DNA of 61,363 bases, filler included, from Kipferlia bialata (lineage: Eukaryota): assembly GCA_003568945.1 (NCBI GenBank). It is 4 parts of 4 records of this genome, joined end to end, with 100 filler letters (N's around TTAATTAATTAA, not from the genome) between each part and the next. Parts side by side here need not be neighbours in the genome. Positions count along the whole stretch, not along the records: positions 57,057 to 61,363 come from BDIP01000367.1; 3 more parts are not named here. The stretch is one strand, 5' to 3'. Made by a program: the position numbers and the translations under genes. The number at the start of each line of letters is the position of its first letter. Within the stretch, counting starts at the first letter, position 1. Positions 1 through 61,363 of the stretch are shown here, piece after piece. The notes beneath the pieces are model-generated. The model had not been told where the DNA came from. It saw only the letters and a list, made by a program, of their open reading frames with translations, and ran no database searches.

Positions 1-50
<50 letters not shown>

Positions 51-468
51 TAAGAGGAGCCTAAAGAGTAGATCTTAGATGACCTCCACTCGATTGAACC
101 TGAACCCTCAGTCTGACCATCATAGATTCACTGGATGTCTCTTTCTGTATGATGCACCTCCCCTTCTTTGTTCCCATTTTGAGGAAGCGTTGTTCCGTGC
201 TATGTGCATAGGTTCATGACTGAGTGTGATTGCTAGGGCACGGCCAGATGGCCAAGAGATACCTTCAATTCATTGTGAGAGATCCTCTTCCCTCACACAT
301 GGTATCTTGCCTGGTATGTTGACGTGATCACACCTGCGCACTGGGGCTCTCTCCCTTCTAGAGCTGGTTTCATATAGAGCTGCAGGGAGTGACCCAGCCA
401 CAGATACTGCTAGATCTTGGTGGATTGATTGGAGTCAGATACTCAGAGTCTGAGTGCTCTAGTGCTCT

Positions 469-17529: not shown

Positions 17530-17629
17530 GGGTTACCACAATTAGTAAATGGGATGTTGTAGCTTGATTTATGTCTCTAATAGAGTCTGTCAGAGGGACA
17601 GTGACACACTTGGTTATCAATTCACACTT

Positions 17630-17907
17630 ATGGCTGTTGCCATGGTAATTGCAACCAATATCTACATACCATCAGATAAGAAGGCTAAACCCTCAAGTTA
17701 TAGTAGTAACTCAATCCAATCGTGTTCCTGTCCAACGCCTTTCGACATCTTTCATCCCCACCAGGTATCTCCCCGCTGTCCCCCCATTGTCCATGTGCTG
17801 CACTTTTCAGTTATCGTGGCCAGGATGTGTCTACTACAGTGTGTGGGTCTACTGTCCCCCGTACTGTAGTCGTATTAGATGGCCTCAATGATCCCAAGGA
17901 GAGTGCC

Positions 17908-17952
<45 letters not shown>

Positions 17953-20900
17953 GCCCCCCCCCCCCCCCCCATCCACGCCCTATGTCTCCCTCTGTCCACC
18001 TTCTCCTTAAGACAAGGATCATTGGTTTCTTTGCCACGTCTCTCAGGTCTTACTCTCAGGTGTGCATTTCTCTTGATGCTTCGGGGTCGATGGGCGGGTC
18101 AGACGGCTCTTCTGGAGGGACAACGAAGATGGAGGTGTGTGGTTGTACTAAATTGTACTGGCTGACGCATTGCATTCTGCCAGTGACACTGACTCTTCAG
18201 ACGGCCATTGTCACCAGCCTGGAGTTCCTTGACGAACTCAACGACGTGACCCCCGTCAAGGACAAGGCATCTGCCAACTACTGGGATGAATTTCTCATTA
18301 TGCGTGAGCCCACCACCCCAGGCCTTGTGGATGACTACACCGACATTAGGGTGTGTGTCATTCTCTTCTGTCATGATGTGTTGTATATATATATGTATAT
18401 ATATACATATGGATACGTGTTGCTGTATTGGAGGGAGTATTTCTACACCCTTCCTCTTTCTCACTCACCTCAGGCCATGATTGAAGACATCGTTGACGAC
18501 GGGTACACCAACCTCACTGTCGGTCTTGGGGCATGCCTCGCCGACTTCCAGGCAGTGGGTACCGATCCCAACCTGTTCAGCAAGGCAGTCATCTTCCTCA
18601 GTGACGGGAGGGAGACCAGGGGTCTTCCCTATTTCAACACAGGTGTGAGGTCTTTGGGAAACTGTCCTTTCCATTCTGAATCATTCTCTATATCTTACGC
18701 AGGCCACGACATTGCTGTTGCCCTCGGCGCTCTAGGGGTCAAGATCTTCTCCATTGGTCTTGGCAATAATGTTGGCGAAGGTATGTCAGTATATATATTC
18801 TACCCTTGATGCATTTCGATACCATAAAGAGTCAGATGTGATCAGAGACTTATAGTCCTTTTGTGTTCTAATCTAATCTTCAGCCGAGATGGACGACATG
18901 GCTAAATCTGGAGCTCCTGGGGGTATGTTCTTCGAGGGAGTGGACCAGGCCACCCTCCCAGCCATCTTTGCTGCCATCCTGGAGTCCATCACCATCGCGC
19001 TTGCCCCTTCTGACGTTGATATCACCGAGATCACCGAGCCTTACATCATCGACGAGCCCCCCTTCTCCCCTAACGCCCCTGACAACACCAGTGGTAGCAA
19101 CACCTTCGAGTGGGAAGACGTCAGCAACAAGCTCAACCCCCCTGACGACTACCTCACCGAGGACGAGTCCTACGTCATCACATTCGTCGCTAAGGTAACG
19201 ATGAGGTTTTCGTTTCCTATACTTTCCCGGTACTCATGTTATGACTGTATCCCACACCCAGGCGGATCAATGTGGCACTGACCTTCCCGTGGACGCCGCC
19301 GGTGCCGAGGTCAACTATATCGATGAGGATAACATCCCCCGGGTCGTGACCATTCCCCCTGGGTCCATCACCGTGCTGTGTGAGGACACCTGCGAGGAGT
19401 GTGTCCACATCGGCAAGGTCTGGTGCGTTAAGGCCGGCGACCACGACGACGAGTGTGTGTTCGAGAATGAGGTGGACGGCACCTGCATCGCCACATCCGA
19501 GACCAACCCCAACTGCGACTTCACCAACACCTGCCAGGCCTGCGCTGCCTTGGATGGTTACGTCTGGTGCCTGGATGTGAACGGCGACGGCGACTGCGTC
19601 GACAGGGACCTGTCTGATGGTTGCGCCTACGTGGTAGACACCCAGCACGAGTGTGACCTGGAGCCTCTTACTGATTGTGGTGACTGTATTGAGCTTGACG
19701 GCTCCTGGTGTTACCGCCTGTCCCCTGCGGAGGGTGAGTGTGTACCCGACGGTGACAGCCCGCCGGCCGACTGCAACGATGTCATCGAGGTCGATACCGA
19801 GTGTGATCCCGATGTCCCCATCAACTGTCAGGATTGTCTTGACCTGTTTAACACGGTGTGGTGTGTGTTGCCTGGTGACACTGATGATATCTGCCTTGAT
19901 TCCTCCGATACATGCTCAGGAATTGCCATCACTGACTGTGGCGCCCCCAACATGTGTGTAGAGTGTGTCGCCAGAGACGAGTACGAGTGGTGTGTTGTGG
20001 ATGACACTGGCTCCTGCGTGCTCGAGGGCACCGAGGCCTGCGACTATGTCATTGAGGACGCTGCTCTGTGTGGCGAGGACCCTGACACCTGCNNNNNNNN
20101 NNNNNNNNNNNNNNNNNNNNNNNNNNNNNNNNNNNNNNNNNNNNNNNNNNNNNNNNNNNNNNNNNNNNNNNNNNNNNNNNNNNNNNNNNNNNNNNNNNNN
20201 NNNNNNNNNNNNNNNNNNNNNNNNNNNNNNNNNNNNNNNNNNNNNNNNNNNNNNNNNNNNNNNNNNNNNNNNNNNNNNNNNNNNNNNNNNNNNNNNNNNN
20301 NNNNNNNNNNNNNNNNNNNNNNNNNNNNNNNNNNNNNNNNNNNNNNNNNNNNNNNNNNNNNNNNNNNNNNNNNNNNNNNNNNNNNNNNNNNNNNNNNNNN
20401 NNNNNNNNNNNNNNNNNNNNNNNNNNNNNNNNNNNNNNNNNNNNNNNNNNNNNNNNNNNNNNNNNNNNNNNNNNNNNNNNNNNNNNNNNNNNNNNNNNNN
20501 NNNNNNNNNNNNNNNNNNNNNNNNNNNNNNNNNNNNNNNNNNNNNNNNNNNNNNNNNNNNNNNNNNNNNNNNNNNNNNNNNNNNNNNNNNNNNNNNNNNN
20601 NNNNNNACAGTATGGTGTGTCCTGCCAGATGAGAACGATGATCTCTGCCTCGCTTCCGCCGCCGACTGCATAATCAACTACTCTGGCGTCCCCATAGAGG
20701 ACTGTGGCGCCCCCGACATGTGTGAGGCATGTATTGCTAGAGACGAGTACGAGTGGTGTTTTGTGGGTGACACTGGCTCCTGCGTGCTCGAGAACAGCGT
20801 GAACTGCGACTATGTCATTGAGGACGCTGCTCTGTGTGACGAGGACCCCGACACCTGCGAGGGCTGCCTTGCCCTCGGTAACACCTGGTGTGTGAGGGCT

Positions 20901-22233
20901 GGCCAGTTGGATGAGTGCCGCGCCCCAGGGGAGAGTGTGTCTGACTGCATTGTCGAACCCTCTGTACCTGCTGACACCTGCAACCCTAACCCTAACTGTG
21001 ACATCTGCGTGGCCTGGGACGACTACGTATACTGCCTGGACGAGAACGGTGTTGGCGAGTGTGTTCTAGAGACACTCTCTGGCGACTGCAGCTACGTTGT
21101 TGAGACGCAGGACGAGTGTCTGTTAGAACCCCTGGATGACTGCGGGGATTGCATTGAGCTCGACGGCTCCTGGTGTTTCCGCCTCCCTCCCGCTGAGGGT
21201 GAGTGTGTTCCAGATGGAGAGCTTCCACCACCCGACTGCAACAGTATCATTACCGATGATGAAGACTGTGACCAGGGCGTGCCCGAAGACTGTGATGCTT
21301 GTCTGCGGCTGGAGGGCACTGTCTGGTGTGTCGGTGAGGGCCTAGACGACCAGTGCACATCACGGACCCAGTGCGCTATACTACAGGGGACACCCTACGT
21401 TGAGTGTACTCCACCTGATTGCTGTCCCCTCTGCCTAGACTGGGATGATCACTTCTGGTGTGTCAACGACGGTACTGGAGAGTGCAGAGAGAGCCCTACC
21501 AGTGATGAGTGTGACTACATTGTGAGGGACATCGATGAGTGTGACATTGGAAGCGGTGCTGCTACATGTGACGTATGCGTGGATGTTGGTGGAACCTGGT
21601 GCCTCAGGCTGGATGGGGACGATGAGTGCCTGTTCCCAGGAGACGACGACACAGGTTGCAACGGTCTCCTCTCTGTTGGAGAGTGTGATGACACCTACGA
21701 TACGTGTGATGACTGTTTCACTCTGGTTGACACTGTATGGTGCTACACCTGCCTGGGAGGAGAGTGTAGAGATACTCGCGACAGAGATGGTTGTGATGAG
21801 GTTGTGCTATCAGACGCCGGCTGTATCGACGTCCCTCCTGAGACCGAGTGTGATGAGTGCACTGCTCTTGGCTGGTACTACTGTGTGAGGCTGTTTGGCG
21901 ACAGTGAGTGTGTCCAGCCCGGACAGCAGTGTGACTGTGATCTTGTTGTCAAGACCCCAGGTGACTGTGACGATGTTCCTGAGTTCCCTGAGGTCTGCGA
22001 GGACTGCCTGGCTGCCGACTACACGTGGTGCGAGACCCCCTTCGGTTACCTCTGTGTGGGAGACGTCGATTACTGTGTCATCATAGGCGGTCTACCCGTT
22101 ACTGAGCCTGAGGACTGTCCAAGGGGCAACCCCACCCTCCCCTGCCCCAAGTGCGTCAACAACGGGTACCTCTTCTGTGCCAGAGGCGAGGACGAGGAGT
22201 CTTACTGCACAGACTCCGAGCTGGAGTGTCTGG
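17630..22233 (+). CDS. von Willebrand A domain protein followed by many Cys-rich CxxC-x(5-6)-WC repeats; probable surface or secreted protein; truncated at contig end, start uncertain
   Basis: MIDAS motif ISLDASGSMG (about 18065-18095), then GYTNL, VIFLSDG and VKIFSIGLG. From about 19390 a long acidic Cys-rich repeat ORF. Confidence 0.85.
19500..21290 (+). repeat. Internal coding duplications of the Cys-rich modules
   Basis: 19933-20092 is nearly identical to 20700-20858. 19640-19800 (LEPLTDCGDCIELDGSWCYRL) matches 21110-21270 (LEPLDDCGDCIELDGSWCFRL). Confidence 0.85.
20093..20606. other. Scaffold gap (N run) inside the repeat region
   Basis: Run of N. Confidence 0.99.
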
Positions 22234-22333
22234 NNNNNNNNNNNNNNNNNNNNNNNNNNNNNNNNNNNNNNNNNNNNTTAATTAATTAANNNNNNNNNNN
22301 NNNNNNNNNNNNNNNNNNNNNNNNNNNNNNNNN
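22234..22333. other. Artificial contig spacer
   Basis: N run, TTAATTAATTAA at 22278-22289 (stops in all six frames), N run. Confidence 0.97.
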
Positions 22334-31600: not shown

Positions 31601-32771
31601 TTCTGGCTGCTGTGCACCTGGGGGTAAGACAAGTGATACATATACATGCATGTTTATGTACATAGACCCACCTCCTGTCCGAATGTTGCCTCAGTCAGAC
31701 ACCCATACAGCCTGGAGAAGAACACGAGTCTGGGCGAGGAGGGGGGGTGGGGCCGGAGGGAGGGGGCACTGCAGAGCAAGGTGGGTGTGTTGGTACTGAC
31801 CCCCAGGTGTGGCTGCATGTCAAAGACCAAGAGGTAGTCTGGATACACACTGCACACAAGGTGTCTGCCGTCAGGAGCCCACTCCAGCTGCGTGGTCATG
31901 TGAGGGGGGTTGGAGGCGGGGGGAGGGCCAACGTCTGAGGGTGAGAGGTATAGCCATGGAGGAAGAAGAATGTGGGAGGGGGGGGGGGGGTCGCCCACAG
32001 GTTCTGCCTGATGGAACACAGAACATATACGTCTCCTCTCACCTCTGAATGAGCACAGCACGTGCAGGAGCAGGCCTGTCTGGCTGTCCCACACCTTGAC
32101 CACCCCCTCATCACACCCAGTGGCCAGGTACCTAAGGGTAAGAGAGAGTAGACTGATACTGATACTGATACTGATACTGATCACACCCAGTGGCCAGGTA
32201 CCTGGAGGTGAGGGAGGGGCACACTATACAGGGGTTGTATAGTACTATATGAACATACTCACATGCCGTCTGGGCTGAATGAGCTGGCAAAGACCGCCGA
32301 TCTGTGCCCCTTGAGCATGGCCAGGGGGACATGCCCCGAGGGGGAGGACGTACACACAGCCAGGGCCTGCGACACATCGGGGGAAAAGGTGAGCTCTGCG
32401 GCACACAGGATGCGGCTGGTGTGGGGGAGGGGGGACGGCATCCCCAGGCGCCTCCACAATACCCCCGACTGCAGACACCGGCTGGCATGCCTCTGTGTCT
32501 CCATCTGCTCTATCTGCCCCAACCGATATGCCTCCAGGGCAGCTGCCAGCTGTGCCACTGACCACTGTGTGGGGGTGTCTCGGGATGCCCTGTCTGACAC
32601 CATCAAGGTGTCCCCAGACTCAGACCCACCCTCATCGCTCGCAGACAGGTCAATCAGGTGCCGCAGAGACCCGTCCTCATCAGACACAGCTCGAACCAGA
32701 CCACCCAGCCTCTCGAGACCAGCCGAGAGAGAGAGATGGGGCGAGACTGGGTCTCCCCCACCTGGGCCCAT
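25652..32771 (-). CDS. BRWD/PHIP-like WD40-repeat and bromodomain protein, multi-exon
   Basis: N-terminal LKGHRSAVFASSFSPDG/RYLATGCDEGVVKVWDSQTGLLLHVL is a WD40 repeat like BRWD1/PHIP. PWTPVVGERV resembles YVPQMGDEV. C-terminal YSPVSTLARVPNYWEVVPLAADVSSVIVKLLAGQYY is bromodomain-like. Confidence 0.75.
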
Positions 32772-36185: not shown

Positions 36186-39100
36186 ATGATATGCGGCGTG
36201 ATAGTGACTCGAGCCGGTGTGAAGCCTCGGTCCATCGTGCTTGAGGTTGATGCCGCAAAGGGCACCATCACAGCTGAGCTGGTGTCCAACAGACTGAGGC
36301 AGACCACCGCTGTGCCTATCCCAGCTGTCTCCATACCCACAGATGTGTTGGGGTCCCCAGGTGTCCATCTACTGCATGTCAACGCCGACCCCGTGACTCT
36401 GTGCATGCTAAGTAGTGAGGTACCCAAGGGCCTGGTCTCAGAGGTGGCCTCTCTCAAGTGCAGCGTGTCCTGTGCGTGCTTTATACTACTACTGAGGTCC
36501 CTGTCCATCCAGAACATCCCTGCCATCGACAATGTGGCTCTGATCTCCCCTGCCTCCCTGCTGTTGTTATTGGGGTCTCTGTCTGGGACAGGTCCCATGG
36601 CCACTGAGGCACCCACCACACACAGGGGCAGGATGCACAACGCCACGCTGCTGCTAGACACCCTGCAGGGCATACTGGGCCCAGAGGTCTCGCTGAAGCA
36701 CATCGATACCCAGGTGAGGGTCACTTCATATATATGTCCTGTAGAGTATACTGCTATATGATCTGCAGTTCCGAGGTGGGGGGGGGGGGGAGTTACACGT
36801 AGTATGACGGTCACTCCCTCCCCTCTCTCCAAGAGTGACACTCCAATATTCTCTCTTCTCCCCATACCTCATCTTCTCTCTGTCTCACCCCCCAGGCCCT
36901 GTGTTCCCGTCATCCCTTTGCCATACTGTGTGCATTCGACATAGTGTACTCTCTGTTCCATGGACGGTTCCCAGACCTGCCCCAGCTACCAGAGTACAGG
37001 TGTGGCCGTGTGGATACTCTTTACTCATGAGTGTGTGATAGTTATATACCCCCTATACTCAATTACATACTCCAGGTATGTATTTACATTATATTTACAC
37101 GTCAGTGTATGATATGCCCCTATATATGAAGTCTCACCCCAGTGCCGCTGAGTTCACGTACATAGCCAAGTCTCAGCTGGCACCATCAGGAGAGGGGGAG
37201 AGAGGGGAGAGGAGGGAGAGGAGAGCACGTACACCCCGCAGGGGAGACAAAGGGCGTAGGGATACCACCCATACCCCTCGGTCACCGAGGGCGGGTAGGG
37301 AGACACGGCGGCGAACCCTGACCCCCCGCACCACTGACAGTCAGAGTGTGAGGCAGAGGCACAGCACCAGAGTCAGACATGGGGGGCATGGGAGGCATGG
37401 GAGGCATGGGAGAGAGAGTCTGGAGAGGGTGGCCAGGCGGTCCAGGTCTGTGTCTCTGCCTAGGGCAGGGTCGAGGGGCAGGGGTGGCAGAAGGGGGGGT
37501 AGGGCGTACAGGGGTGTACGTGATAGGTCCCAGTCTGCCTCTGTCCACAGGCCTAGCATGGGTAGGGGGAGGGGTAGGGAGTCGCCCTCCCTGCCCCGGG
37601 GTGCCAGACGGTCCCAGTCCCTCAGACCCCACTCAGCCAGGGTCAGTGGGTCGAGGGAGAGAGGGAGGGGGGCAGTGCGTGGCCGGAGGAGTGTCTCCCA
37701 GGGCAGGGAGTCTCTATCCCTGCGGCGTAGGAGGCCCCTCTCTCACTCAGCCAGAGGGGAGGGGGAGAGGTTCTCTGGCAGGAGTGTGTCTCTATCCAAC
37801 CCGATGAGGAGGGGAGAGAGGAGCAAGAGCAGGGGGAGGGGTAGACGGGGTAAGCCTCGCAGGCGTGTCCGGCGTACTCTGCATATGCCTGAGGGTGAGG
37901 GTCTGATGGATGCGCACCATGCTGTGACAGGGCAGAGGAGGGGGGGAGACATGCCGTCTCTGCCTGTCCTGAGGGATGTACTAGTAAGGGGGAGCAGGGG
38001 GGAGAGAGAGAGAGAGAGGAGGGACAAGGTGAGCATGAGTGTGGAGAGTGCTGCTGGGCTAGGGGGTCAGACGGTGGATGCACCAGCCAGTGATGCTGAG
38101 GGGGGGCACTCCCAGTCGCCTGAGGCACAGGACCTGTTCTCAGCTCATCCCTTACCAGCAGAGGCATCCATCAGGTAGGGGTGGATTGGGTATAAGAGTA
38201 TTGTGATACTCTCATCGTGTCAGTACTCATATGCCGAGACCCTTACTGCAGCATTGCAGGTATCAGTGTCATCTGTCAGTATCCAACACTCTCTGTATTG
38301 TCAGTATGTGTGAGTCTTATGTAAAGTATCATACGCATATGTACATGTACGTGTTCAGACCCCAGGGCCCTGTGGGGTGAGACCACCACCCAGGTCAGAA
38401 GGCAGGGGGAGAGGGAGAGAGAGAGAGAGAGAGAGCGGTCGGTGTCCCTAGCCAGGTCCAGGTCACCCTCCCAGCCACTCACACACGCAGAGAAGGTTCG
38501 ACATCTACATACATACTCACACATACATGTTCATTTGTTCATTCATATACCTTATGCTACCTCTCCCCTCTGACCCCCCAGGTCCAGCGAGCCAAGGACA
38601 GACGCATGCAACAGGACGTGGCCAGGTACAGGAAGAGTCTGCTGCTGGCCAGACAGAGTGCGGCTGAGCACCTGTACACATCACTCCTGAGGGAGGGGCT
38701 CAAGGTACAGAGTATATATATGTATGTATATATATATATACTGAGGGAGGGGCTCAAGGTATCGTCTATTGTTATATGTATATACCCTGAGGGAGGGGCA
38801 CAAGATGTGTTGCATGTTGTAACATAATGGTAGAATAGGTTGGAATATGTTTAGGATATGTGTCATAAATTTCTGCGGGTGAGGGGGCTCCAGGTGTTTT
38901 GGATGGAATGTTGATGCCAGTCCCACTCATCTCTCACACCCTCAGGTTGAGCGGCAGAACCTTGTGGACGAGGCCCACTGGTACAAGGATGAGTATGAGG
39001 AGAGGGAGAGAGAGACCCGGGTCAAGAAGGAGGCAGAGACCAAGAGAGAGAGCGACATCCTCAACATGCTACAGGAGACGGTGGAACAGGCCAGGTGGGT

Positions 39101-40447: not shown

Positions 40448-42056
40448 CTACAAGCAGTGTCTGAGCATGTGCAGGGGATGGGCTGATGTCCACACCTCAG
40501 ACTCACACAGCATGCACTTGGCCTTGCCCTTGGTAGAGGTAGAGGTAGTGGTAGGGGCAGGGGGTGATGCTTCTCCAGCCCCCTCCGCTTCCTCCTCCAC
40601 ACCCTCACCACCCTCTCTGCCACTAGTCCCTGTGACACAGTCAGAGCCAGACACCGCGACATCAGCTGGTGGGTGCTCTGTCTTGATGTGTGCCAGCAAC
40701 TCTGACCCACCCCCCACCCACCCACACACACAGCACCGCACAGAGGGACAGGTCACCCGCGTCACATCCCCAGAGTGCCAGATCTAAGGGGTGAGACACG
40801 GGTGGATTGATATGTCTGTAAGGTATATGTATGTGTATTTAGACATAGGTGTCTGTACCTGGTGCATTGTGATGAGCGGCAGGTACCCCTCGAGGGCATC
40901 CACCCTAAGAGACAGAGTATCTGTGCCCATCTGGGTGTGGTTGTGAGGCCCCCTCCTGTTGAGGTGTATGGGCAGGGTAGACACCTCGAGTGTCTGTCTG
41001 AGTGTGTGCAGCAGGGGGTGGGAGTGCATCAGTCCAGCCACGGTCAGGGCTGACAAGGACAGGCTGGACAGGACAGACCCATAGGACACCCAGGTCCTGA
41101 AGGTATCTAGGACAGTGGTGCATGGGTGAGGGGGGGGGGGGGGATATGGGATACACAACAGATGAGGATAGACACATGGAGAGAGAGTAGATGGGGAAGG
41201 CATCGAGCACAATGGGTCATGAGCCAGTGGTAGGGGTGAAGGGTACACCCCATGTACTTCTCTACGTCATGTCGATGTACCTGCTGTGTCCAATGTAAGG
41301 GTGTCCAGTGCCGGGGGTGCCTGATAGTCAGGTGTCAGTATACAATAGACTATACGATATGGCTACATACAGATACATACCTGTGTGGCCGGTGCCCTGC
41401 TGTATATATGACCCAGGACAGGGTGGGACGGGACAGGGCCGATCTGAGGTATTAGGGTATGTTCCCAGTATTGAAGAGTTGAGGCAGAAATATATGTAAT
41501 ATACCTAATACAGTGTATTATGGTATATGAAGAGTAGAACATCTCATAGTGCATTACATATTCATCAACACATTGATTGAGAGTGTATATAGGCTCATGA
41601 CATAAACAGGTACACACTCCCAGCCTCTTGTACAAGGCAAACCAGAACACCACTACCCACCTTGAGAGTGTGTGGGGATGTGATGAGCCTCTTGATCCCT
41701 GTGTCTCTGATGCTGAACAGCCTGGGGCACTCCACCACCACCACCTCGGTCTGGGTGGATAGCACAACACGTGCAGGCCCCATACCCACCTGGGAGGGGG
41801 GGACAGGCACCCCCCCACTCTCTCTGGCAGAGAGCACAGCCATACCAACCACAGGGAGAGAGAGGGCGTTGGATATGATGGGGGCAGCCTGCTTGAGAGG
41901 CACACACACGATGTGCAAAGGGTAGGCAGGAGAGGCTGGGGTGGCGGGTATGGGGTAGGAGGCGCCAGTCACATAGGCCTCGCACCTATCCAGCAGCCCA
42001 GACACAGGGATATGCCCCCCCACATACACCTTCTGCCCAGGGGTTAGTTCACGCAT
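40448..42056 (-). CDS. Hypothetical multi-exon protein with C-terminal zinc-finger-like motifs
   Basis: ORFs 41595-42056, 40784-41248 and 40448-40765; CCVCGW...LLAHIKTEH and CMLCE...HMLRHC resemble C2H2/C2HC fingers. Confidence 0.45.
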
Positions 42057-42238
42057 GAAAACACCAGTGTAGGAAGGTGACCGGTACCGGTACCGGTCTG
42101 TGGGCTGAGTAAAGGGTTCTGGTTGATGGAGACAGAAACACAGGTGCTCACCTGTCTAAGTGCATCTCTTCTGGCACTCACCTTGACGTTGACCCTGACC
42201 CTATACCCCTGGTACCCTATAGACAGACACATAGAGAC

Positions 42239-43796
42239 ATGAGTGCCAGTCAGCAGCAGGCGGCATTCTCGCTGAAGGCCCCCCCTGCTGGGGAGGTACC
42301 TGAAGGAGAGGAAGGGGCAGATGCCGAGCAGGCCAAGATGGACAAGCTGAGGAAGAGGCTGGAGATGACAGGGGAGCCCGAGGAGGGAGGTCCCAAGCGG
42401 AGGGGACCCAAGCAGGTGTGGGGTTGGATGCAGTGGGGTGTTACTAGTGCCAATACCTATAGTGCTCATACTCTATAATGTTAACCATCCCATACATATA
42501 CACCCACCCCCAGGTGGCAGAGGAGGAGAGGATGGTGCTCAAGGCCAGAGACTTCGAGATTGACTTTGACCAGCACATCGGTATGTATGTATATATATAT
42601 AGTTGTCGGTATTTGTTTCACTTTGTTACACAGTCATCTCTTGTGTACCATGTGTACACCACGTTCCATCATCATTGCATATATAGAGATGTATTTGTAC
42701 TTCGATTTCGCTGTGAATGTGTACGTCTCTCTCTCTCTCTCTCTCTCTCTCCCCCCCCCCAAAAAAAAAAACCCGAAGCATATTGTATATATTATCAGCA
42801 TCTCTCCTTCTGTGTGCATATCTATCCCAAACACCCCCATTCACCCCAGGCCGTGCCGAGGCCCTGTCCCTGGCATCCAGTCAGCAGCACAGCGGAGGAT
42901 TCAGGTGGGTGTCTATGTGTATGTGCCTTTGTGAGTATACATACACACATTGTCATCTCAGTGTTTGTATACTACTACGTATTCAGTGTGTTAGCCCTTC
43001 TGTCCATCCCTCCCATATCTCCCCCGTTGTCGGGTGTGACTGTCATATATACATATCACATCTCTCTATACACCCCTCTCACCCCCAGGTGCAAGGTGTG
43101 CAGGCTGACCTTCAAGGACAGTGCATCATACCTGGACCACATCAACTCGGACGAGCGTACGTGGATAAGTCCAAGTATATATATATATACCCAAGACTCT
43201 ACCCGTAGATGCCTCTCTTATCGTTCTCTTATTGCCTCTATGGATACATACATGTGTATAGTCCTCACCCCAGACCAGGGTGCTCTTGGTTTCCAGACCA
43301 CGGTGGAGAGAGTGTCTGCGGAGAAGGTATGTATTTGTGTGTGTATCTATATACAATGTATGACACATATGCTGTTTATTGTGTGTGCAGTGCTGATATA
43401 TGCTGACCTCAGGTCATATCCCGTATGTAGAGATCACTTACATGACATATGTATTCTATTACACATATCAATTATACAGTATCCAACCCCCCAGGTCATA
43501 GCCCGTGTCTATGATATACCCTATCATTACATACGTATACTAGTATTCATTGTCTTTGTATGCTGACCCCTTAGGTCATTGCCCGTATCAAGTACCACGC
43601 CAACCGGAAGAGGAAGGGCAAGACACTCGAGAGGAAGCTGAAGCAGATCAGGTGGGTGGATAGTGTATATATATGTATATCTATACATATAGATGTATAT
43701 ATATGTATGCTCAAGCAGATCAGGTGGGTGGATGTATGGATATATATACAGGTATATATATACATATATACAGATAGGTGTGTATATATATATACT

Positions 43797-43832
<36 letters not shown>

Positions 43833-44561
43833 ATATGTCCATATATACAGGTAGATGTATATATATGTATGCTCAAGCAGATCAGGTGGGTGTATATATA
43901 TATATATATACTGGAATATATATGTATATATATATATTTTATTATTCTCGATATATGTGTATGTATGCTCAAGCAGATCAGGTGGGTGAAGGCTTGTATG
44001 TGTGTATCCACTCCCCTAATAAGTGTATATATATGTATGTATATATGTTTCAGCATACTACCACAGTTCTCTTTTGCACAGCCCCTCACCCCCAGGGCCG
44101 ACGAGGAGGCCACCGTTATGAAGGCCACCTACTCGCACGAGAGAGAGAGAGAGAAGAGGCGGGACATGATCAAGTACCACGAGGCCAAGCTGAGGAAGAG
44201 AGAGGAGGACGAGGCGGCGGCCCTGGCCATCGCCAGCAGACCCGCCCCCGTTCCCCCCCAGAGGCCCCAGACCTTGCCCCCGATGGTCCAGCCGATGATG
44301 CCTGGCCTGGTGGATGAGACTGTGCCCATGGTGCAGCCGATGATGCCGCAGGACGTGTATGCCCCTCAGCCCCTGATGCCCATGGCCCAGCCCACCCCAG
44401 AGGACATAGAGAGGGAGATGGTCGGGATGGCACAGCCACACGTGCAGGCACAGCCCCTGATGCCTACTGGGCCGGGGGTGCCCATGGGTGGGGTGCCAGT
44501 GCAGCCGTACCCTGTGGGGGAGGGGTACCCCCAGGGACCACAGCCACCCCAGAGGATGTAG
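42239..44561 (+). CDS. ZMAT2: Zinc finger matrin-type 2 / Snu23 spliceosomal protein with Pro/Gln/Met-rich tail
   Basis: Spliced [15 protein letters not shown]...[25 protein letters not shown]...[18 protein letters not shown] matches the ZMAT2/Snu23 signature. Confidence 0.85.
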
Positions 44562-44562
44562 A

Positions 44563-44662
44563 NNNNNNNNNNNNNNNNNNNNNNNNNNNNNNNNNNNNNN
44601 NNNNNNTTAATTAATTAANNNNNNNNNNNNNNNNNNNNNNNNNNNNNNNNNNNNNNNNNNNN
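44563..44662. other. Artificial contig spacer
   Basis: TTAATTAATTAA at 44607-44618 within an N run. Confidence 0.97.
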
Positions 44663-44921
44663 CAAAAACACCCCCCCTCCCCCCCCCCCCCCCCCCCCCC
44701 CTTGTTATCACGTCTCTGTACTATTCCACAATAATTCGAAAGCTAATCTCAAAGCTATATGTGCTCATACCATTCAGTATCCACCTTCTGCCCCCCCCCC
44801 CACCCCCTTCGTCAGATACCCGACTGTAGGCCCTTGCTTGAGTCTCTCTCTCTCTGTCTCACTATATCTCGATTGTATATAACTGATCCAGGACGACCCT
44901 GCCTGTACGGTTGGGTCTCTA

Positions 44922-45241
44922 ATGAGTGACTCAGAGACATCTGAGGTATGTATGTATCTGTATTAACATATGGATATGTAGGCTGACACATGGCCCTCCT
45001 ACTTCTCTCTCTCTTTCCCTCTCTACGTATCCATCACTATATATATGTATATATAATCAATTCTGTATACTTATACCAGGACACCTCAGAGGATGACACC
45101 TGACTTTCCCACTTCTCTCTATGTGTGTCCATATCTATAGATCTCTCTCTCTATACATACTAACTCTAGGATACCTCTGAGGACGACTCCTGGTCCCCCC
45201 ACAACGCTGTCATTGTGACATTCGACGATGACGGTACGTAG

Positions 45242-45276
<35 letters not shown>

Positions 45277-48200
45277 ATCTGTCTCTCTCTCTGCCTCTCT
45301 GACAATGAAGGTGTTGTTGCAGACAAGGAGTGGTTCACACTCGACATAGGGATACAGGTACAGATATATATTTCTATATATATGTCTTTGTATTTTTCAA
45401 TTGTATATAGAGGCTGATATCGTGTGGTTCACTTTCTACAGTATGATCATACTCACCTCAGAGGAGTGACATGGAGCGTATTGTTCACAGAAAATTCCAG
45501 TTCACGTTCACTATCATCAATGCACTATGTCTATATTACTATATTCATTCTTATATGTGTGATCTTTCGTTACTCCCCAGAGGAGTGAGCACATCGATAC
45601 GTATTTTGTATTTTGTATTATATACTATATATTATATATAGATACGTATATACATTTGCTTTCATATCGGTTATTGTATGCATATATACACAGAATAGTC
45701 ATACTAAATCCAGAGATGCACTATATATACATACATACATACATATATATATGCTATATATACATACATATACACACTCACCCCAGAGGAGTGACATGGA
45801 GCACATCTATCTAGTATGCACTATATTTATATATACTATAGATATATATATATGCTATGTATTGATGTATATATACATCCTTATTCCAGAGGAGTGACAT
45901 GGAGCACACTGTCAAGGGCTACTCCATCGATGAGACCCACGTGATGCTGATGTGCATATCATGGTGGGTGGTGATATAGTAGACCCATACACTGACTCTC
46001 TATATAGATACCTATATGTATATACCTTATGTGATGCTGATGTGCATATCATGGTGGGTGGATGTATGTCTAGGGAGTGTATGCATGTAAAGTGACTCCA
46101 CTTCACTTTGTTCATATTTTATACTAGTTTCTTGATTCTATTAATGAATTATTATATCATTAATTCACTTCTTTGTCCCCTCTCTGACCAACCGCTACAT
46201 TATTATGTTCCCCCGCTCTGTCTCTCTCTCTCTCTCTATTCCTACTCACCCCTAGGCACAACTACTCTCTGACCAACCACTACATGTACACGCTGTGCCT
46301 GGACTCACTCGAGTGCCACAGGTATATATATACCAATAATCGATATATACACACACAGTTACTACTGAGAATGATATGTATTACATACAGTGGATCATCT
46401 AGCATTGTGCCTGGACACCCTGGGGTGTCACAGGTATACAAGTATATATATGTGTATGTATGTATATACTACTATATGTATGTACATACATGTCTAACCC
46501 ATAGACACACTCAAGTAGTCCATGCCGAGGGTGTATCTCAGCCCCAGCAGGAGAGACTGGGGAAGAAGGAGGGAGAGGGGGAGGGGGAGGGGTACCAGAG
46601 TGTCAACATGTGGAAGGGACAGCCCACACAGTTCAGGTATATAGAGTATATATACATACATAGATATATACGTATATATATATGGACATGTATGTGATAC
46701 TGATACTGATACATGTGGAAGGGGCAGCCCACACAGTTCAGGTATTGTTGTTTCATATGTATATACTACTATATGGACATGTATACTCTCTCCACTGTTC
46801 TTTCCCTCCTTCTCACCCCCTCAGGCTTGGTGACCGACTCATCCTGCTGGGCTAGACATACATATAGTACAGCACACACATATATATGTATATATGTGTG
46901 TATGAGTATGTATGTATGAGTATACTGAGATACTTACCCAGGCTTGGCGACAGGCTCATCCTGCTTGGCAACAGACAGCCCAGGTTCTCCGTCAAGGGAG
47001 AGGTACGGAACAGTAAGACGGTTTAGATATCAGTATAGGAATTGATATAGTGGATATTGTGACCACTATACCCCCTTTGTGGCACCACTCACCTGAAACC
47101 TTCCCTCTCATATCTCTCTCTATTCATTGATGTGTGTCTGTATATACTCTCGCTCACTCTATCTCTGCCTGATAGCTCACTTTCCCATTATCCTATTCTC
47201 TCTCTCTCTCTTATGCTAGAGCACCGTGAACTGGATATAGTAGCACCCTCTTCTAACAACAGCTCTGCGTGATGGCCCACTATCCCCCTATCCCAATCTA
47301 TCAACTCACTGAACATGTATACAACATGTATACTTGACCTATATCTGATATATCCAATATCAGCTCTGCATGATGGCCCACTGTCCCTCAGACGACACGT
47401 GGGAGAGGCTCACACCCCCACCTAAGGTAGGTGCACAGTGTATGATACATATGAGATATTTTTGAAAGTGTACAGTATTTATGCATTGATCCTATGATAG
47501 AGTCTGTGCAATGAGATTCGGTATATACACACACACTCTCTCTCTTTCCGAATATATATCGATGAAAGTACATGACCCTGACCCCCAGGCCATTATGGAG
47601 TCTATCAATGGCTATGGGTACCACTCCTCCTCACACTTGAGGTATCGGCATTGTCTCATATGTATGTATATCACATGAGGTATATGTCACTAAGGATCCT
47701 CAGAGTCTATTATGTGTGTTATATACACTAAGAGTGTGTACTGCTTGGCTATGGGTACCACTCGTCCTCACACCTCAGGTATCGGCATCGTCTTCTCACA
47801 GTATACATGTAGTATGATATCAAATTCAGGTAAGATCTCTCACTTCAGTGTGGGTGTGGTCGGTGACACCGCCTACTTCATCAAGAAGGAGAGTGACATG
47901 GGATACAGGTATGGTTTCAATACTTAACCTAAAAATGTATTGACACTATTGTATACACTAAATACAAGTAGTAATATATACTACATTCAGATGCACATTG
48001 AATTCTTAGTGAATATTTGATTCTCTTACTGTAGATACTCCTTTGATGAGGGATGGTCTGAGCAGTCTCTGTCTGGGGTCGGTCTCAAGCTGGAGAGGAG
48101 GAGTGGGTTCTTTAGACGAAATGGGGAGGTTAGTGTGGGTCCTTGTTAGTATGTAGCATCATTATGTGGGTATGTATTATCTTACATGTGGGTCAGTATT

Positions 48201-49052
48201 ATCCCAGAATGGGGACCCACCTGCCTAGACCCCCTGCTGACTCCCAGTATGCCCTCAATGTCATGGTGGGATTGCCACAGCACCTACTGCTACAGGTATG
48301 GGGACTGTCTACACTATATAGAGTACATCAAGGAACCCATCTCTATTTGCATTGTCGCCCTTATTTCGTTGTTTCTGTTTGGTATAGTCAGTCAGTATTC
48401 TGTTGTTGTCTCACCGTCAGAAGGCCGATTGGATCATCGCAGACCCCACCGACTACTACTCATGCCCATGGGAACAGCACTTGCACACATGGGACACGGT
48501 GTCTGAGGTATATACATATATATATATACATATGGTTAATAGTATCGGAGATTTGTAATATATGTGTGCTAATACCCTATTAATCCGTAATATCTCCATA
48601 GCACTTGTACACATGGGACACGGTGTCTGAGGCATTATTCTGCAATATAGTATCCCACACCTCTCTCCCTCTCACTAATGCCTTAGGCTTGGGCCGAGAT
48701 ACCCTTTTTGAAGGAGGACTATATGTGTCTCTGAGTGTGTATATGACTACATCTCTTCCTAATTAAGATGAATCACTGAGTGAACCGTGCTCCTCTTTGT
48801 ATAATGTACATAGACATTTATTGATTGCCAAACGGATTTCCTGATTGATTATAGGAATGGACCGAGATCCCCTTTGTCGGAGCGGACGGTGTCACCAAGG
48901 CCGAGTGTCCCCGTATGTCCATGGCTGTACCTCTGCAGCCCAACGGAGGTGCCGACTGTAAGTGGATAGTGTACAGGAATAACAGCTATGATCAGGGGAA
49001 TACCCAGAGTTCACCAGCTCTGTCTGTTATGGAGTTCTGGGAGAAGGAATAG
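44922..49052 (+). CDS. Kelch/beta-propeller-like protein encoded by many short exons
   Basis: ATG 44922 (MSDSETSE/DTSEDDSW...). Exons with MYTLCLDSLECH, VGVVGDTAYFI, YSFDEGWS, HLHTWDTVSE. Last exon 48857-49052 EWTEIPFVG...MEFWEKE*. Confidence 0.65.
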
Positions 49053-50739: not shown

Positions 50740-50927
50740 GGAGTCGGATATATGACCAAGGGTGTACGTGCCTGTCCCTAACAGTACCCCTGCAGCATAA
50801 GGGAGGTGCTGAGGCAGCTGACTGTAAGTGCATAGTGTACAGGAATAGCAGCTGTGGGCAGCAATGCACTCAAGGCTCGCCAGCGCTATCTTTCATGGAG
50901 TTCTGGTATTCAGAAGCCACAGAATAG
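50740..50927 (+). pseudogene. Paralogous fragment of the last exon of the 44922-49052 gene
   Basis: Protein-level similarity to exon 48857-49052; no upstream exons seen. Confidence 0.5.
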
Positions 50928-55994: not shown

Positions 55995-56956
55995 ATGATC
56001 CACACTCACCGCAGCCAGGGCCTCTGCCAGAGGCTTAGGGAATGGTGTCAGGGCATGGCCAGCAGCCAGTGCCTCAGTGAGTGAGAGGACTGCCTGTGCC
56101 CCCTCCTCAACAAGTGAGGCATGGAGGGGGGTGTCGATGCTGCCACACAGGATGCCATCCACCCTGGGGTGAGAATGAGAATGACCACATACAATATTAA
56201 GGAATACTAAGGTAAAATATAGCAGGGTAGGTATAGCCATACCTGTCGTAGACCTCCAGCAACACTCCCCCTGCCACACTACAATACTATACTTACGCTG
56301 AAGACAGCAAACATGTACTAGGGAATGTGTGTGCAGCCATACCTGTCGTAGACCTCCAGTAGCACTCCCCCTGCCACACACACAATGGAGGGACAGAGGG
56401 GGGCAGAGTCTACGGACACAGATGCCCTATCTGCTGTCTGGGCCAGTGAGACCAGCTCGGTAACCCACCCAGCGGCATGGAGGGGGGCAAAGTGGCCTGG
56501 TATATAAGAGAGAGTGACGACACACATATGTATACAACACATTGCCACAAAATAGAGATCTACATAAATATACACGTATGTATATATATCATATAAACTA
56601 CTCTACATACACACACATACCGGGGGCAGGTGCCTCTGGGAATGTGCTGAATGGCAGTGTGAGTCTAGACACTGATAGGGCAGAGGAGAGAGAGAGGTGC
56701 ACGGGGATGCGGCTGGCAGGGATAGACATGACACGGGAGATGAACTCGCCTGGGGGTTAGGGATGCTGTCAGAGTGGCCTACTGACCACCGCTGTCTCTC
56801 CCTCACTTTCTCTATGTATATATTCCACAGCTGTATAGACATACTTCTCCATTACCTGAGTCTGCTGCAAGTGCTGTGAGGGTGGCCACCACGGCTGTCC
56901 TGAGTCTGGCATCCACATGGGGGGCAGACAGGACAAGCCTATGTATTAGACATGAG
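54574..56956 (-). CDS. Hypothetical multi-exon, Leu/Ala-rich helical protein; 5' end cut by contig edge
   Basis: GC-rich exons flanked by ctcacccccag acceptors and gt donors; last exon within ORF 54574-55230. Confidence 0.5.
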
Positions 56957-57056
56957 NNNNNNNNNNNNNNNNNNNNNNNNNNNNNNNNNNNNNNNNNNNN
57001 TTAATTAATTAANNNNNNNNNNNNNNNNNNNNNNNNNNNNNNNNNNNNNNNNNNNN
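56957..57056. other. Artificial contig spacer
   Basis: TTAATTAATTAA at 57001-57012 within an N run. Confidence 0.97.
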
Positions 57057-57108
<52 letters not shown>

Positions 57109-57123
57109 CCCTCTGACCCCCAG

Positions 57124-60100
57124 GATAGTCAGGGACAGGGCAGTGGCACTCTATGTAGACATGCACGGACACTCTAGGTATTGTACAGATCAGTGTATGT
57201 ATTATGTTCAATACCAATGAAGTGGAGTGTTATCGCCACAGCAGACGTGTTCCTCTCTCCCTTACTCCAGGCGCAAGAACGTCTTCATGTATGGGTGTGA
57301 CAACAAGAGAGACCCGGCACTGCTGCACTACGAGAGGGTTCTTCCCAGGTACATTTAGTAAGTATATGTAGTATATATAGAGGATTGAATATTCACATGT
57401 TGATATCTCATCTCGCTGTCTCTCTGTCTCTCTCTCATTCTCTTTCTCTCTGCACCCTTACCCTAAGGATCCTCGATGACTTTGGCCCCTCCTTCAACTA
57501 CGAGGATTGCACGTTCAAGGTATATACGACTAGTCATCAATAATATATGTATATATGTATGTATGTATGTATATTAACTACCTAGTATATATGCTATACT
57601 CTATAGATACATCCTTCAACTACGAGGACTGTACATTCAAGATATGGGTATGTGTGTATATACTAAGTGTATACTATACTCTATATTCTTTCCTGCATAC
57701 TAGTTCTAAGACATATATCTAATACATATATCTAATACATATTAATGCAGCGTAACAAGGAGGGCACTGCCAGGCTGGTTGTCAACACTATATATTATTC
57801 CTCATATATGTCACATATATATAGTATTCTATATTAGATGCTAGTGTAATACGTATGCTCATACCAGATGCAGCGTAGCAAGGAAGGCACCGCCAGACTG
57901 GTTGTGAGTATAGGATATACACTCTTCATATATTCTTATGTATATGATATACTATCCATACTAACCCTCTAGATGCAGAGGTCTAAGGAGGGCACCGCCA
58001 GACTGGTTGTTAGTGTGTATATATATATATACATATCCAACATGAGTTGGATCCAATATACTCTGTACTGTATACTATGTATCATCTTCTTATACCAGAT
58101 GCAGCGTAGCAAGGAGGGCACCGCCAGACTGGTTGTGAGTATATACATATACATACTCTCCTCTCCCTATTTATTAATGTATGTATATAAATATATACCC
58201 ATACCAGATGCAGCACTCTAAGGAAGGCACCGCCAGACTGGTTGTCAGTATATGAGTATATACCATACTATCCAATACCATATGTATTATGTATATATAT
58301 ACTAACTGTAGATGCAGCGTAGCAAGGAGGGTACAGCCAGACTGGTTGTGAGGAAGGAGTACAACGTGGTCAACTCCTTCACCATGGAGGCATCGTTCTG
58401 TGGGACAAATCAGGGTATGTATACCCTCAATGTATTCTATTTGTGCTGCGTATGTGTGTGTACTCCGTGTTGTGACTCTCAGGCAAGTACTGTGACATTC
58501 AGTTCAACGAGGCTGATACATGCATATCCCGATACAACGCATATAGAGACATACTTACTGTATATTATGAGCATAAGTGATTATATACTAACCCCCCAGG
58601 CAAGTACTGTGACGTCCAGTTCAACGAGGCTGTTATTTGTATATATACCTATATCAAATAGTATATACATATATATATATATATAAGAATACTTATACAT
58701 CTATGTACTTATCATCAGGCAAGTACTGTGACATCCAGTTCAACGAGGCTGATGTACATATACATTTAAATAGTTTTACTGTTATAGTAATATGTGTGAA
58801 TACATACTCTAACTCCTAGGCAAGTACTGTGACATCCAGTTCAACGAGGCTGCCCTGATGGAGATGGGGGCGGCATTAGGTATATATAGTGTATAACTAT
58901 AGTATAAATATATAGAATAGTATACAATAGTATGTGGATCATTATTTCTTAGATCTATTTGTATATATATTAGAGGCTGCCCTGATGGAGATGGGGGCGG
59001 CACTAGGTACAATATGTATTGTACAAAGAATAGTATATATAGGGAGAGAGAGATAGAGAGAGAGTGGCCCTGATGGAGATGTGGACGGCACTAGGTATAG
59101 GGATACAATCTTTCACATATTGTCAGAATATTCAATTCTCTCTCTCTCTCCCCCCCTGTACACCCTAATATACTAGGCAAGGCCATTCTGCACTCCTTTC
59201 CTACTCCGTCCTTCTCTCTCTCTCTCTCCCTCTCTACACCCTTTAATCAATCAGGCAAGGCCATCCTGCACTCCTTTGCCACTGACACCACCCCCGGTGA
59301 TGCTGCCACTGATCTATCACACCCTGGTGTGCCCCCTCTAAGTGAGGCTGGTCGAGAGGTATGTACTAGTGTATTGTATATATTAATATTATATAATGTA
59401 TGTAGCATATATATACACTGACCTCTCCCACCCTGGGGTACCACCCCTGTCTGAGGCTGGTAGAGAGGTATACATACTATGTATATAGTATAAGTATACT
59501 ATAGTATAGTATATATATAAGAATAGTATATATGTATATATATATACACTGACCTGTCGCACCCTGGGGTGCCTCCATTGAGTGAGGCTGGGAGAGAGGT
59601 ATGCATATATACTAGTGTATATATATATTTTTACATTTATAAGGTGCCACCATTGAGGGAGGCTGGTAGAGCGGTATTGACTCTCTTTCTCTCTATCTCT
59701 CTCTCTCTCTCTACACTCTTTACCCCAGGTTCTCAACACCATCCGGACTGAGCTCCAGCGGACAGCAATGAGGAAGGAGGAGGAGGTGTGTATAGATTTA
59801 TATATGTGTGTATTCTAAAGTGGGTATTGTTTATACTGTGTATATACTATTATGTATGTACTACTATACATATGGAATATATAACTCCAGCGGACAGCTA
59901 TGAGGAAGGAGGAGGAGGTGGGGTGTATAGATTCATTAATATATGTTTGCTTCCTATAGTGTCTACCATACTCTTACTCTCTAGGTTGAGCCCATCGATG
60001 ACTCCGACTCAGAGTCTAGTATGTATATATATATCCTATATATATGCCAGGTTCCTATCTATATATCTATATATACATATATATACATATATATACATAT

Positions 60101-61363
60101 ATATATACATATATATACCTGTATATACCACTCATACTAGGTAGAGCCCATCGATGACTCCGACTCTGAGTCTGATGAAGAGCCAACAATCAGAGACCAG
60201 ATCAAGGTATATATACCCCAGAACGCTAAACGATAAACTTTCTATACTAAACGGCAGAGACCAGATCAAGGTAATAGGTATATATGCCCCTATATATACC
60301 ATGAAACGCTAAACGCTAAACGCTAAACGGCAGGGCAAGAAGGGCAATACCCCCCCACCTGATGCTGACACCCCTGCTGATGATGTCAACCCATACGAGG
60401 TGCTGGACAGTCTATCTTCCCTGCAGGTATGTACAAGGATGTATATATATATATATTCGTACTTTACAGTATATAAGTATATATATATACCCCTGCTGAT
60501 GATGTCAACCCCTATGAGGTGCTGGACAGCCTGTCCTCCTTGCAGGTATGTACATACACATATATATGTGTATATATGTATGCATTTGCTGGACTGTAGA
60601 ATCTACTGTAGTTGTATTGTTAGTGGCTACTTACTCCCTAGGTGGCCCTCAAGAGAGATTATATGTATAATAGTGAGTACTATAATGTATACTCTATATA
60701 TATGTAGTATAATAGTGCCTATTCTAACCCTAGGCCGCTCTCAAGAGAGACACGTCCAAGGACAAGTAATATTTTATGATATATACACACGTGTGATATA
60801 TTTAATGCTATTTCTGACTCTCTAGGCCGCCCTCAAGAGAGACACGTCCAAGGACAAGAAGATTGTATTCACAATAGTGTCTATTATATTATATACTGTG
60901 TATGTAGTATATTAGTGCCTATTCTGACACTCTAGGCCGCCCTCAAGAGAGACACCTCCAAGGACAAGAAGAAGAAGAAGAAGGCAAAGAAGGAGAAGGT
61001 ATCTATTGTACAATGTATTATACGTTTATAGTCACTTGTGTCACTGTATATTACATACGCATATTCTCTCTCTCTCTCTCTCTAGCCCCTTATTGTCAGG
61101 CTGCCAAGAAGAAGAAGAAGGTCAAGAAGAAGGAGGAAAAGGAGAAGGAGAAGGAAATGGAGGTATGGGATATATAAGTAATATGTATATATGTATATAT
61201 ATGTGTGTAGAGAGAGAGAGAGGGAGAGAGAGATAGAAGAAGGTGAAGAAGAAGGAGGAGAAGGAGAAAGAGAAAGAGAAGGAAATGGAGGTATGGGACA
61301 TATATGTTAGTATATATCTATAGAGAGAGGGGGGGGGGGGGGGGGAAGAGGAAGAAAAAGAAA
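57124..61363 (+). CDS. Cytosolic carboxypeptidase (M14D, CCP/AGBL/Nna1 family, tubulin deglutamylase type), partial; Lys/Glu-rich tail
   Basis: Spliced LYVDMHGHSRRKNVFMYGC...ERVLPRIL...FNYEDCTFKMQRSKEGTARLVV...NSFTMEASFCG...FNEAALMEMG shows the Zn-ligand HGH and catalytic FTxE motifs of CCPs. Confidence 0.92.
57610..61300 (+). repeat. Intronic tandem copies of exon edges in most introns of the CCP gene
   Basis: ATGCAG...GTTGT x6 (57745-58350); GCAAGTACTGTGAC..CAGTTCAACGAGGCTG x4 (58483-58852); GCCCTGATGGAGATG x3; GAGGCTGG.AGAG x4; GCCCTCAAGAGAGA x4 (60640-60965). Confidence 0.95.

Follow-up and report, generated by a model that had tools for sequence, protein, structure and literature searches.

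Silently diverged half-exon copies stacked in the introns of a carboxypeptidase-like gene of Kipferlia bialata and their possible origin in diverged alleles

Results

The carboxypeptidase-like gene

Kipferlia bialata is a free-living fornicate protist related to Giardia. The window, i.e., the whole stretch of DNA that was analyzed, comprises 61,363 nt of its assembly GCA_003568945.1; N-flanked TTAATTAATTAA linkers at 22278, 44607 and 57001 mark contig joins, and the genes flanking them are not necessarily neighbours. The gene considered here lies in the last part of the window (Table 1). Translation of its GT-AG exon chain agrees with P0001, which NCBI labels Kipferlia bialata, over all residues compared (264 of 264). 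Residues 4–120 are 56% identical to a Monocercomonoides zinc carboxypeptidase carrying PF00246/PF18027, and the other named matches of the fragment are mostly cytosolic carboxypeptidases; judged by these best matches, the gene is probably cytosolic-carboxypeptidase-like (CCP/AGBL, M14). A Pfam search of the fragment alone returned no M14 match, the window holding only the end of the domain. A profile search of 1.84 billion proteins yielded no close relative, the next sequences reaching at most 54% identity among the 150 matches listed, mostly over residues 2–125. With exon 4 as the query, a single Kipferlia bialata protein was matched and no present paralog was seen.

Table 1. Exons, introns and half-exon copies of the CCP-like gene, and the second copy-bearing gene, in positions of the window
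Feature	Position	Strand	Remarks
CCP-like gene fragment	57124..61162	+	11 exons, 10 introns; opens just past a contig linker, ends near the window end
CCP-like gene, exons 1–6	57124-57177, 57271-57348, 57468-57519, 58312-58414, 58820-58879, 59255-59358	+	
CCP-like gene, exons 7–11	59729-59785, 60141-60206, 60334-60426, 60936-60998, 61100-61162	+	
Live exon 6	59255..59358	+	final 51 nt are the reference 17-mer; exon chain matches P0001; in spliced contig
Intron 6	59359..59728	+	370 nt, GT..AG; holds copies 2–4; excised whole in spliced contig
3'-half copy of exon 3	57612..57641	+	3 silent; donor lost
Five 5'-half copies of exon 4 (57745, 57868, 57973, 58099, 58208)	57745..58248	+	18 silent, 2 replacement codons
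Three 5'-half copies of exon 5 (58483, 58600, 58719)	58483..58751	+	1 silent, 1 replacement
Two 3'-half copies of exon 5 (58973, 59067) and one 5'-half copy of exon 6 (59177)	58973..59205	+	
3'-half copy 2 of exon 6	59417..59467	+	retains its GT donor; 10 codons changed, all silently
3'-half copy 3 of exon 6	59548..59598	+	retains its GT donor; 9 codons changed, all silently
Copy 4 of exon 6 (shorter, farthest 3')	59644..59673	+	4 silent, 2 replacement codons
3'-half copy of exon 7	59885-59917	+	silent changes only
5'-half copy of exon 8	59985-60017	+	all changes silent
Short 3' copy of exon 8	60255..60270	+	identical to live exon
3'-half copy of exon 9	60489..60545	+	6 silent, 0 replacement in 19 codons
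Three 5'-half copies of exon 10 (60642, 60734, 60826)	60642..60862	+	
3' copy of exon 11	61237..61290	+	extra in-frame Glu-Lys unit, silent changes; excluded from counts (low complexity)
Second gene, P0020	44922..49049	+	14 exons, no Pfam family; 13 half-exon copies, same polarity, no silent excess above the null

Polarity and anatomy of the arrays

To locate exon-derived pieces in introns, an anchored scan compared exon ends with the introns adjacent to them. It took in 10 exons of the 11 in the CCP-like gene, all 14 of P0020 and four further exons chosen from a whole-window repeat scan; the remaining genes were covered by whole-window scans only, and all counts refer to this window. A looser version of the scan gave 12 register-shifted and two wrong-polarity matches, all at the Lys/Glu-rich exon 11, which was dropped, and the threshold raised, before the final counts. 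The scan then returned 42 copies at 25 exon ends, with 22 of them in 7 of the 10 introns of the CCP-like gene. All 42 obey one polarity, in which 5' halves precede the live exon and 3' halves follow it, and none is reversed; the control gave 2 matches in 387,680 non-adjacent intron positions. Tandem duplications whose two ends lie in the exon and in the intron, respectively, produce such strict polarity, which counts in favour of the capture of alleles discussed below.

Each unit consists of an exon end plus the adjoining intron end, repeated directly and adjacently at a spacing of 64–156 nt, and each copy has one splice site rather than an acceptor plus a donor. The three copy-free introns measure 93–119 nt, and six of the seven copy-bearing ones 355–792 nt. 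Inner boundaries, defined as the maximal match to the live exon, are common to the units within the exon 4, exon 5 and exon 6 arrays. Every exon 4 copy has its own acceptor except the farthest, where it is lost, and the copies show AGC/TCT and CGT/AGG swaps; the intron flanks of the three 5' copies of exon 5 are mutually unlike. The additional Glu-Lys unit in the exon 11 copy suggests a length-variant allele. At 60222-60328, short repeats of the AAACGCT type stand ahead of the exon 8 copy and again ahead of the live exon 9 acceptor, and nearly the entire intron is duplicated along with the exon end.

Three spellings of one peptide at exon 6

The 17-residue tail of exon 6 (59308–59358) sits behind the conserved portion of the protein, and its translation is identical in the live exon and in copies 2 and 3. 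A preliminary description of this DNA had reported that the peptide is written three ways with 10 and 9 codons changed, and a codon alignment reproduces this exactly: copy 2 differs from the live exon in 10 of 17 codons (11 nt), copy 3 in 9 (10 nt), and the two copies from each other in 8 (9 nt), all silently. The swaps among the versions include CTA/TTG as well as the Ser AGT/TCT and Arg CGA/AGA exchanges it had pointed out, and the shorter, decayed fourth copy was recovered where it had been placed. Both full copies do begin right after ATATAC with no AG at the join, and a GT then follows each.

Random recodings of the 17-mer with the codon usage of the window are expected to differ in 9.9–11.0 codons, against the observed 10, 9 and 8, and the versions are thus close to silent saturation. 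Single changes in the 17-mer are silent in 31% of cases; 11 silent changes out of 11 give P ~2e-6 under neutral decay of the copy and P ~3e-4 when the live exon may drift silently too, values that are approximate, the two-base Ser swap being counted as two silent steps. The earlier suggestion that the source sequences had long been under coding selection is upheld. Within the CCP-like gene, this tail is the extreme of a range that runs from 0 to 10 of 17 codons.

Two splicing routes through the exon 6 array were considered and rejected. Splicing in frame between a GT near 59297 and an AG situated 11 nt ahead of copy 2 would alter four residues, has no counterpart at copy 3 and is attributed to chance, and an AT-AC intron at the ATATAC join lacks a matching donor in the live exon.

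DNA contigs and spliced contigs

Two contigs assembled from reads of run X1 place each of the exon 6 and exon 4 arrays on one DNA molecule. The first (494 nt, depth 412) is colinear with 59243-59488 and 59555-59677 with 0 other letters; the intervening 66 bases were masked as repeat in the comparison. The second (1143 nt, depth 456) covers 57586-58655, including the five exon 4 copies. A chimeric assembly, which the preliminary description had considered, is contradicted by the former, a single read-derived contig that spans all four versions; run X1 may be the window's own source, and it excludes a chimera without serving as a second sample.

A contig of run X2 (1645 nt, depth 259) aligns, again without any differing letter, to eight live exons among those listed, joining 58414 to 58820 and 58879 to 59255 at GT..AG; this run is taken as RNA solely from such joins, no run being recorded as RNA. 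It passes from exon 6 (59358) directly to exon 7 (59729), skipping copies 2–4, and the evidence for skipping is the joins across the copies, not missing X2 cover on them. In line with the preliminary description, the copies are hence not ordinary cassette exons, nor are they spliced in as a protein repeat, only the full exon being used; in keeping with this, P0001 contains the 17-residue peptide once, so the copies are not translated in series. The contig employs the original donor and acceptor, and the duplications have therefore created no new intron. At 80% likeness, contig comparison found one spliced contig over the exons and no second expressed version, on the understanding that contigs drop rare isoforms and that "0 other letters" does not prove homozygosity. 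The gene's DNA is present in one sample only, and the absence of a diverged DNA copy is weak evidence, part of exon 4 being uncovered in one DNA comparison and covered in another.

Excess of silent changes

Across its 22 copies and 251 codons, the CCP-like gene shows 60 silent versus 9 replacement codons (42 versus 9 as distinct changes). Against a neutral copy combined with a silently drifting live exon, P is ~1e-9, ranging from 5e-11 to 3e-8 with transition bias. The excess persists when the three exon 6 copies of the original observation are removed (37:7, P <=1e-7) and when only nearest copies are taken (30 silent versus 2 replacement, P <=1e-7). Position-blind mutation bias was rejected as its cause: 13 of the silent swaps, AGC/TCT twice among them, require a change at the first codon position or at more than one base.

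Per site, silent changes amount to 0.28–0.35 and replacement changes to 0.015–0.017. A neutral dead duplicate would show replacement changes per site of at least about half the silent value, a proportion found in the five other copy-bearing genes and not in the CCP-like gene. After subtraction of post-demotion decay, the silent divergence is ~0.32 raw and ~0.42 corrected. It is heterogeneous among copies beyond a single rate (P=0.004), the behaviour expected of alleles that coalesced at different times. It shows no trend with distance from the live exon. These values hint at a silent diversity near 0.3–0.4 without measuring it, the copies not being independent random alleles.

Splice ends, flanks and decay

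Outside the exon parts, the copies are largely unlike. In comparisons of 40-nt intron flanks, 1 of 13 donor and 5 of 29 acceptor pairs (6/42) scored above the 95th percentile for unrelated flanks; one exon copy that matches perfectly over 33 nt scores 1 in its flank. Nevertheless, 11 of 13 copy acceptors retain a variously spelled branch-like motif, versus 34 of 270 other intronic AGs; among live acceptors the figure is 25 of 28, one live coordinate being off by one. GT or AG is kept in 20 of the 22 copies of the CCP-like gene. Each unit has thus brought its own working splice end, and the silent excess, the kept splice signals and the unlike flanks make each copy a working exon end until recently. 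Slippage in the (TA)n-rich introns could also scramble flanks without selection, which speaks against the capture of alleles.

In raw counts, the farthest copies of the arrays carry 14 replacements in 78 codons, versus 8 in 175 for nearer ones, and lost splice sites are likewise concentrated in the farthest. On a plain reading, the copies had diverged before demotion and decayed afterwards.

Other genes of the window

In five other genes, 20 copies show 18 silent versus 19 replacement codons, for which the neutral null suffices (P 0.06–0.4), and this counts against the capture of alleles. Thirteen of these copies belong to the family-less P0020 gene, whose alleles may differ in protein; two weak copies there (47163, 48778) were retained and lean the result toward the null. 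The duplication process is therefore general in the window, and the strong silent signal comes from one gene.

The four further genes carry same-polarity half-exon copies at 43413-43981, 38741-38804, 56243-56279 (minus strand) and 32177-32201 (minus strand). One of these genes has a C2H2 zinc finger, and the sole difference in the minus-strand copy at 56279 is a CTA/TTG Leu swap. Copies cluster in genes with AT-rich, (TA)n-rich introns (42000-49000 and 56000-61363), and the repeat scan found no half-exon copies in the long-exon genes of 1-18000. At 50763-50915, a nearby paralogous or decayed piece has 61% identity to the C-terminus of P0020.

Discussion

A proposed mechanism for the capture of alleles

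On balance, we consider it somewhat probable that the copies, which are spliced-out junction-spanning tandem duplications, are demoted halves of different, long-diverged working alleles captured during break repair from a divergent homolog. The sources would be working versions of the gene that were not seen in the present sample. Extreme allelic diversity or long-separated haplotypes had already been put forward in the preliminary description, and this also remains the best interpretation here; the corresponding second haplotype was not found, degenerate-pattern scans of metagenome contigs giving 0 matches each, a blank that is uninformative on diversity.

The mechanism we infer would start from alleles so diverged that only exons still pair, their introns being unalignable. 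A broken end would invade the homolog within an exon, copy back through the splice site into the intron of the other allele and then be joined by microhomology end-joining instead of being re-annealed. The incoming exon half and its splice site would become live, and the resident half would be left about one intron length away. Once an array is present, mis-registered pairing with an old copy would add units of the same inner boundary, and the copies would decay neutrally as newer ones push them outward. The copies themselves likely have no function, the arrays being a record of recombination.

Msh2, Msh3, Msh6 and XPF/Rad10 normally reject or trim mismatched joints. All of these are listed for Kipferlia bialata in the accessible part of a repair-gene inventory (PMC8516963), which counts against the mechanism. 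The same part lists Dmc1, Spo11, PolQ and Rad52 for this species and neither Rad51A nor Ku70, describing fornicates as lacking Rad51A and metamonads as lacking Ku70-Ku80 (PMC8516963), and this set of genes fits the capture mechanism. As far as the accessible sections of the respective papers go, Dmc1 stabilises mismatched triplets (PMC6719624), tandem duplications arise from polymerase-theta end-joining of aborted strand-annealing repair (PMC8654963), and crossovers favour exons in the hyperdiverse fungus Schizophyllum commune (PMC4209137).

More tentatively, and at what we would put as rather below an even chance, Dmc1-only, mismatch-tolerant recombination in an outcrossing fornicate may leave a displaced-allele half-exon at many exchanges. 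The genome would then be a dated sample of alleles, with a silent diversity of 0.3–0.4 and with sex in a free-living relative of Giardia. If true, this diversity would exceed the published eukaryote records compared, of which Schizophyllum commune reaches 0.20 (PMC4576712, portion available); that the implied Kipferlia value lies above it also counts against the capture of alleles.

Alternative explanations

The same capture mechanism could have drawn on a few deeply split source lineages, through repeated hybridisation of cryptic species or through homeologs or paralogs lost since, rather than on alleles of a single hyperdiverse population. The saturated 17-mer and the AGC/TCT Ser swaps suit species-level time, and a lost source would escape the protein and contig comparisons; yet a single array holds at least five silent versions and divergence in the gene runs from 0 to saturation, where two or three fixed lineages would give few discrete classes, and contig comparison showed no second expressed version at 80% likeness or above, leaving this a real but minor possibility. 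Recycling within one genome, in which unequal recombination or conversion exchanges copy and live exon and replacement-bearing copies are purged in the live slot, would account for the shared inner boundaries, for exon 4 copies that are mosaic for acceptor type and Ser codon, and for conserved exon parts beside diverged intron flanks. Exchange fast enough to purge replacements would, however, presumably erase silent differences too: silent saturation needs exchange at about the mutation rate, and purging then needs a population so large that it would be hyperdiverse anyway. We regard recycling as possible at a rather low probability.

Use of the copies in mRNA, now or lately, as mutually exclusive or minor alternative exons or by some other route in a reduced spliceosome, could explain why splice sites and branch motifs are kept, and contigs that drop rare forms would hide it; Kipferlia bialata retains only 87 of 174 spliceosomal proteins searched, according to the available part of PMC6679479. 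It is unlikely, given that the spliced contig joins across the copies, that no GT/GC-AG swap preserves the frame at 12 of the 22 copies and weak GC-donor routes are all that 8 of the remaining 10 offer (in the two full exon 6 copies, these would be confined to the final 4 codons), that truncated whole-exon duplicates are expected in both polarities as opposed to 0 of 42 reversed, and that identical peptides leave no reason for alternatives. Sister-chromatid tandem duplications decaying neutrally beside a silently drifting live exon fit the 20 copies of the other genes (18:19), the identical copies and the age gradient, and the excess would then reflect chance or selection of the best example; for the CCP-like gene this is rejected at P <=3e-8 on distinct changes, also without the copies of the original observation, and is very unlikely there. 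An assembly chimera of haplotypes or strains would find some room in the possible identity of run X1 with the window's source; the read-derived contigs of ordinary depth (412, 456) that span the arrays without differences make it extremely unlikely.

Relation to known systems

Tandem exon duplication can give mutually exclusive exons, with exon-like homologues in adjacent introns and silent-biased divergence, as seen here. The CCP copies differ from these in being halves with one splice site, strictly polar, of the same peptide, and skipped. Rogers-type intron gain by internal tandem duplication, in the available text of PMC3443670, likewise involves short head-to-tail intragenic duplications that are spliced out with the protein unchanged, and junction-spanning tandem duplications are thus a known kind. 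In contrast to that type, the CCP units straddle existing junctions without creating an intron between duplicated AG|GT sites, form stacks of up to five, diverged silently beforehand and use a different intron end. Duplications joined by polymerase theta give the geometry of the CCP arrays, in a species listed with PolQ and without Ku70, but those in the accessible part of PMC8654963 stem from an identical sister template in worm repair mutants, whereas a divergent homolog would have served here, in a natural genome. Schizophyllum commune resembles the present case in that exons are islands where divergent alleles recombine; it differs in that the available portions of PMC4209137 and PMC4576712 report no duplicated half-exon scars and a silent diversity of 0.13–0.20, versus the ~0.3–0.4 implied here.

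A search of the open-access full-text literature returned no account of stacked half-exon copies with silent-only divergence, and the accessible parts of the Kipferlia bialata genome paper (PMC5874029) and of PMC6679479 do not mention the duplications.

If the copies are captured alleles, one genome would reveal diversity, recombination between homologs and the positions of breaks without population sampling, and would bear on possible outcrossing in free-living fornicates and on the upper limit of neutral diversity. The arrays also offer a natural test of splice-site choice, in which the live site is chosen over as many as five nearer decoys that look intact. In annotation work, the arrays enlarge introns three- to eightfold and can pass for exons.

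Two minor observations concern other repeats of the window. The P0020 intron after exon 9 starts like the next exon (47642-47655, 47779-47792, 47849-47861), with SIGIV at the intron start versus SVGVV at the exon start and one extra G, and may have been born from exon duplication of the Rogers type. A Cys-rich protein encoded at 19205-22289 contains silently differing internal coding repeats (19673 versus 21138), which look like an ordinary translated repeat.
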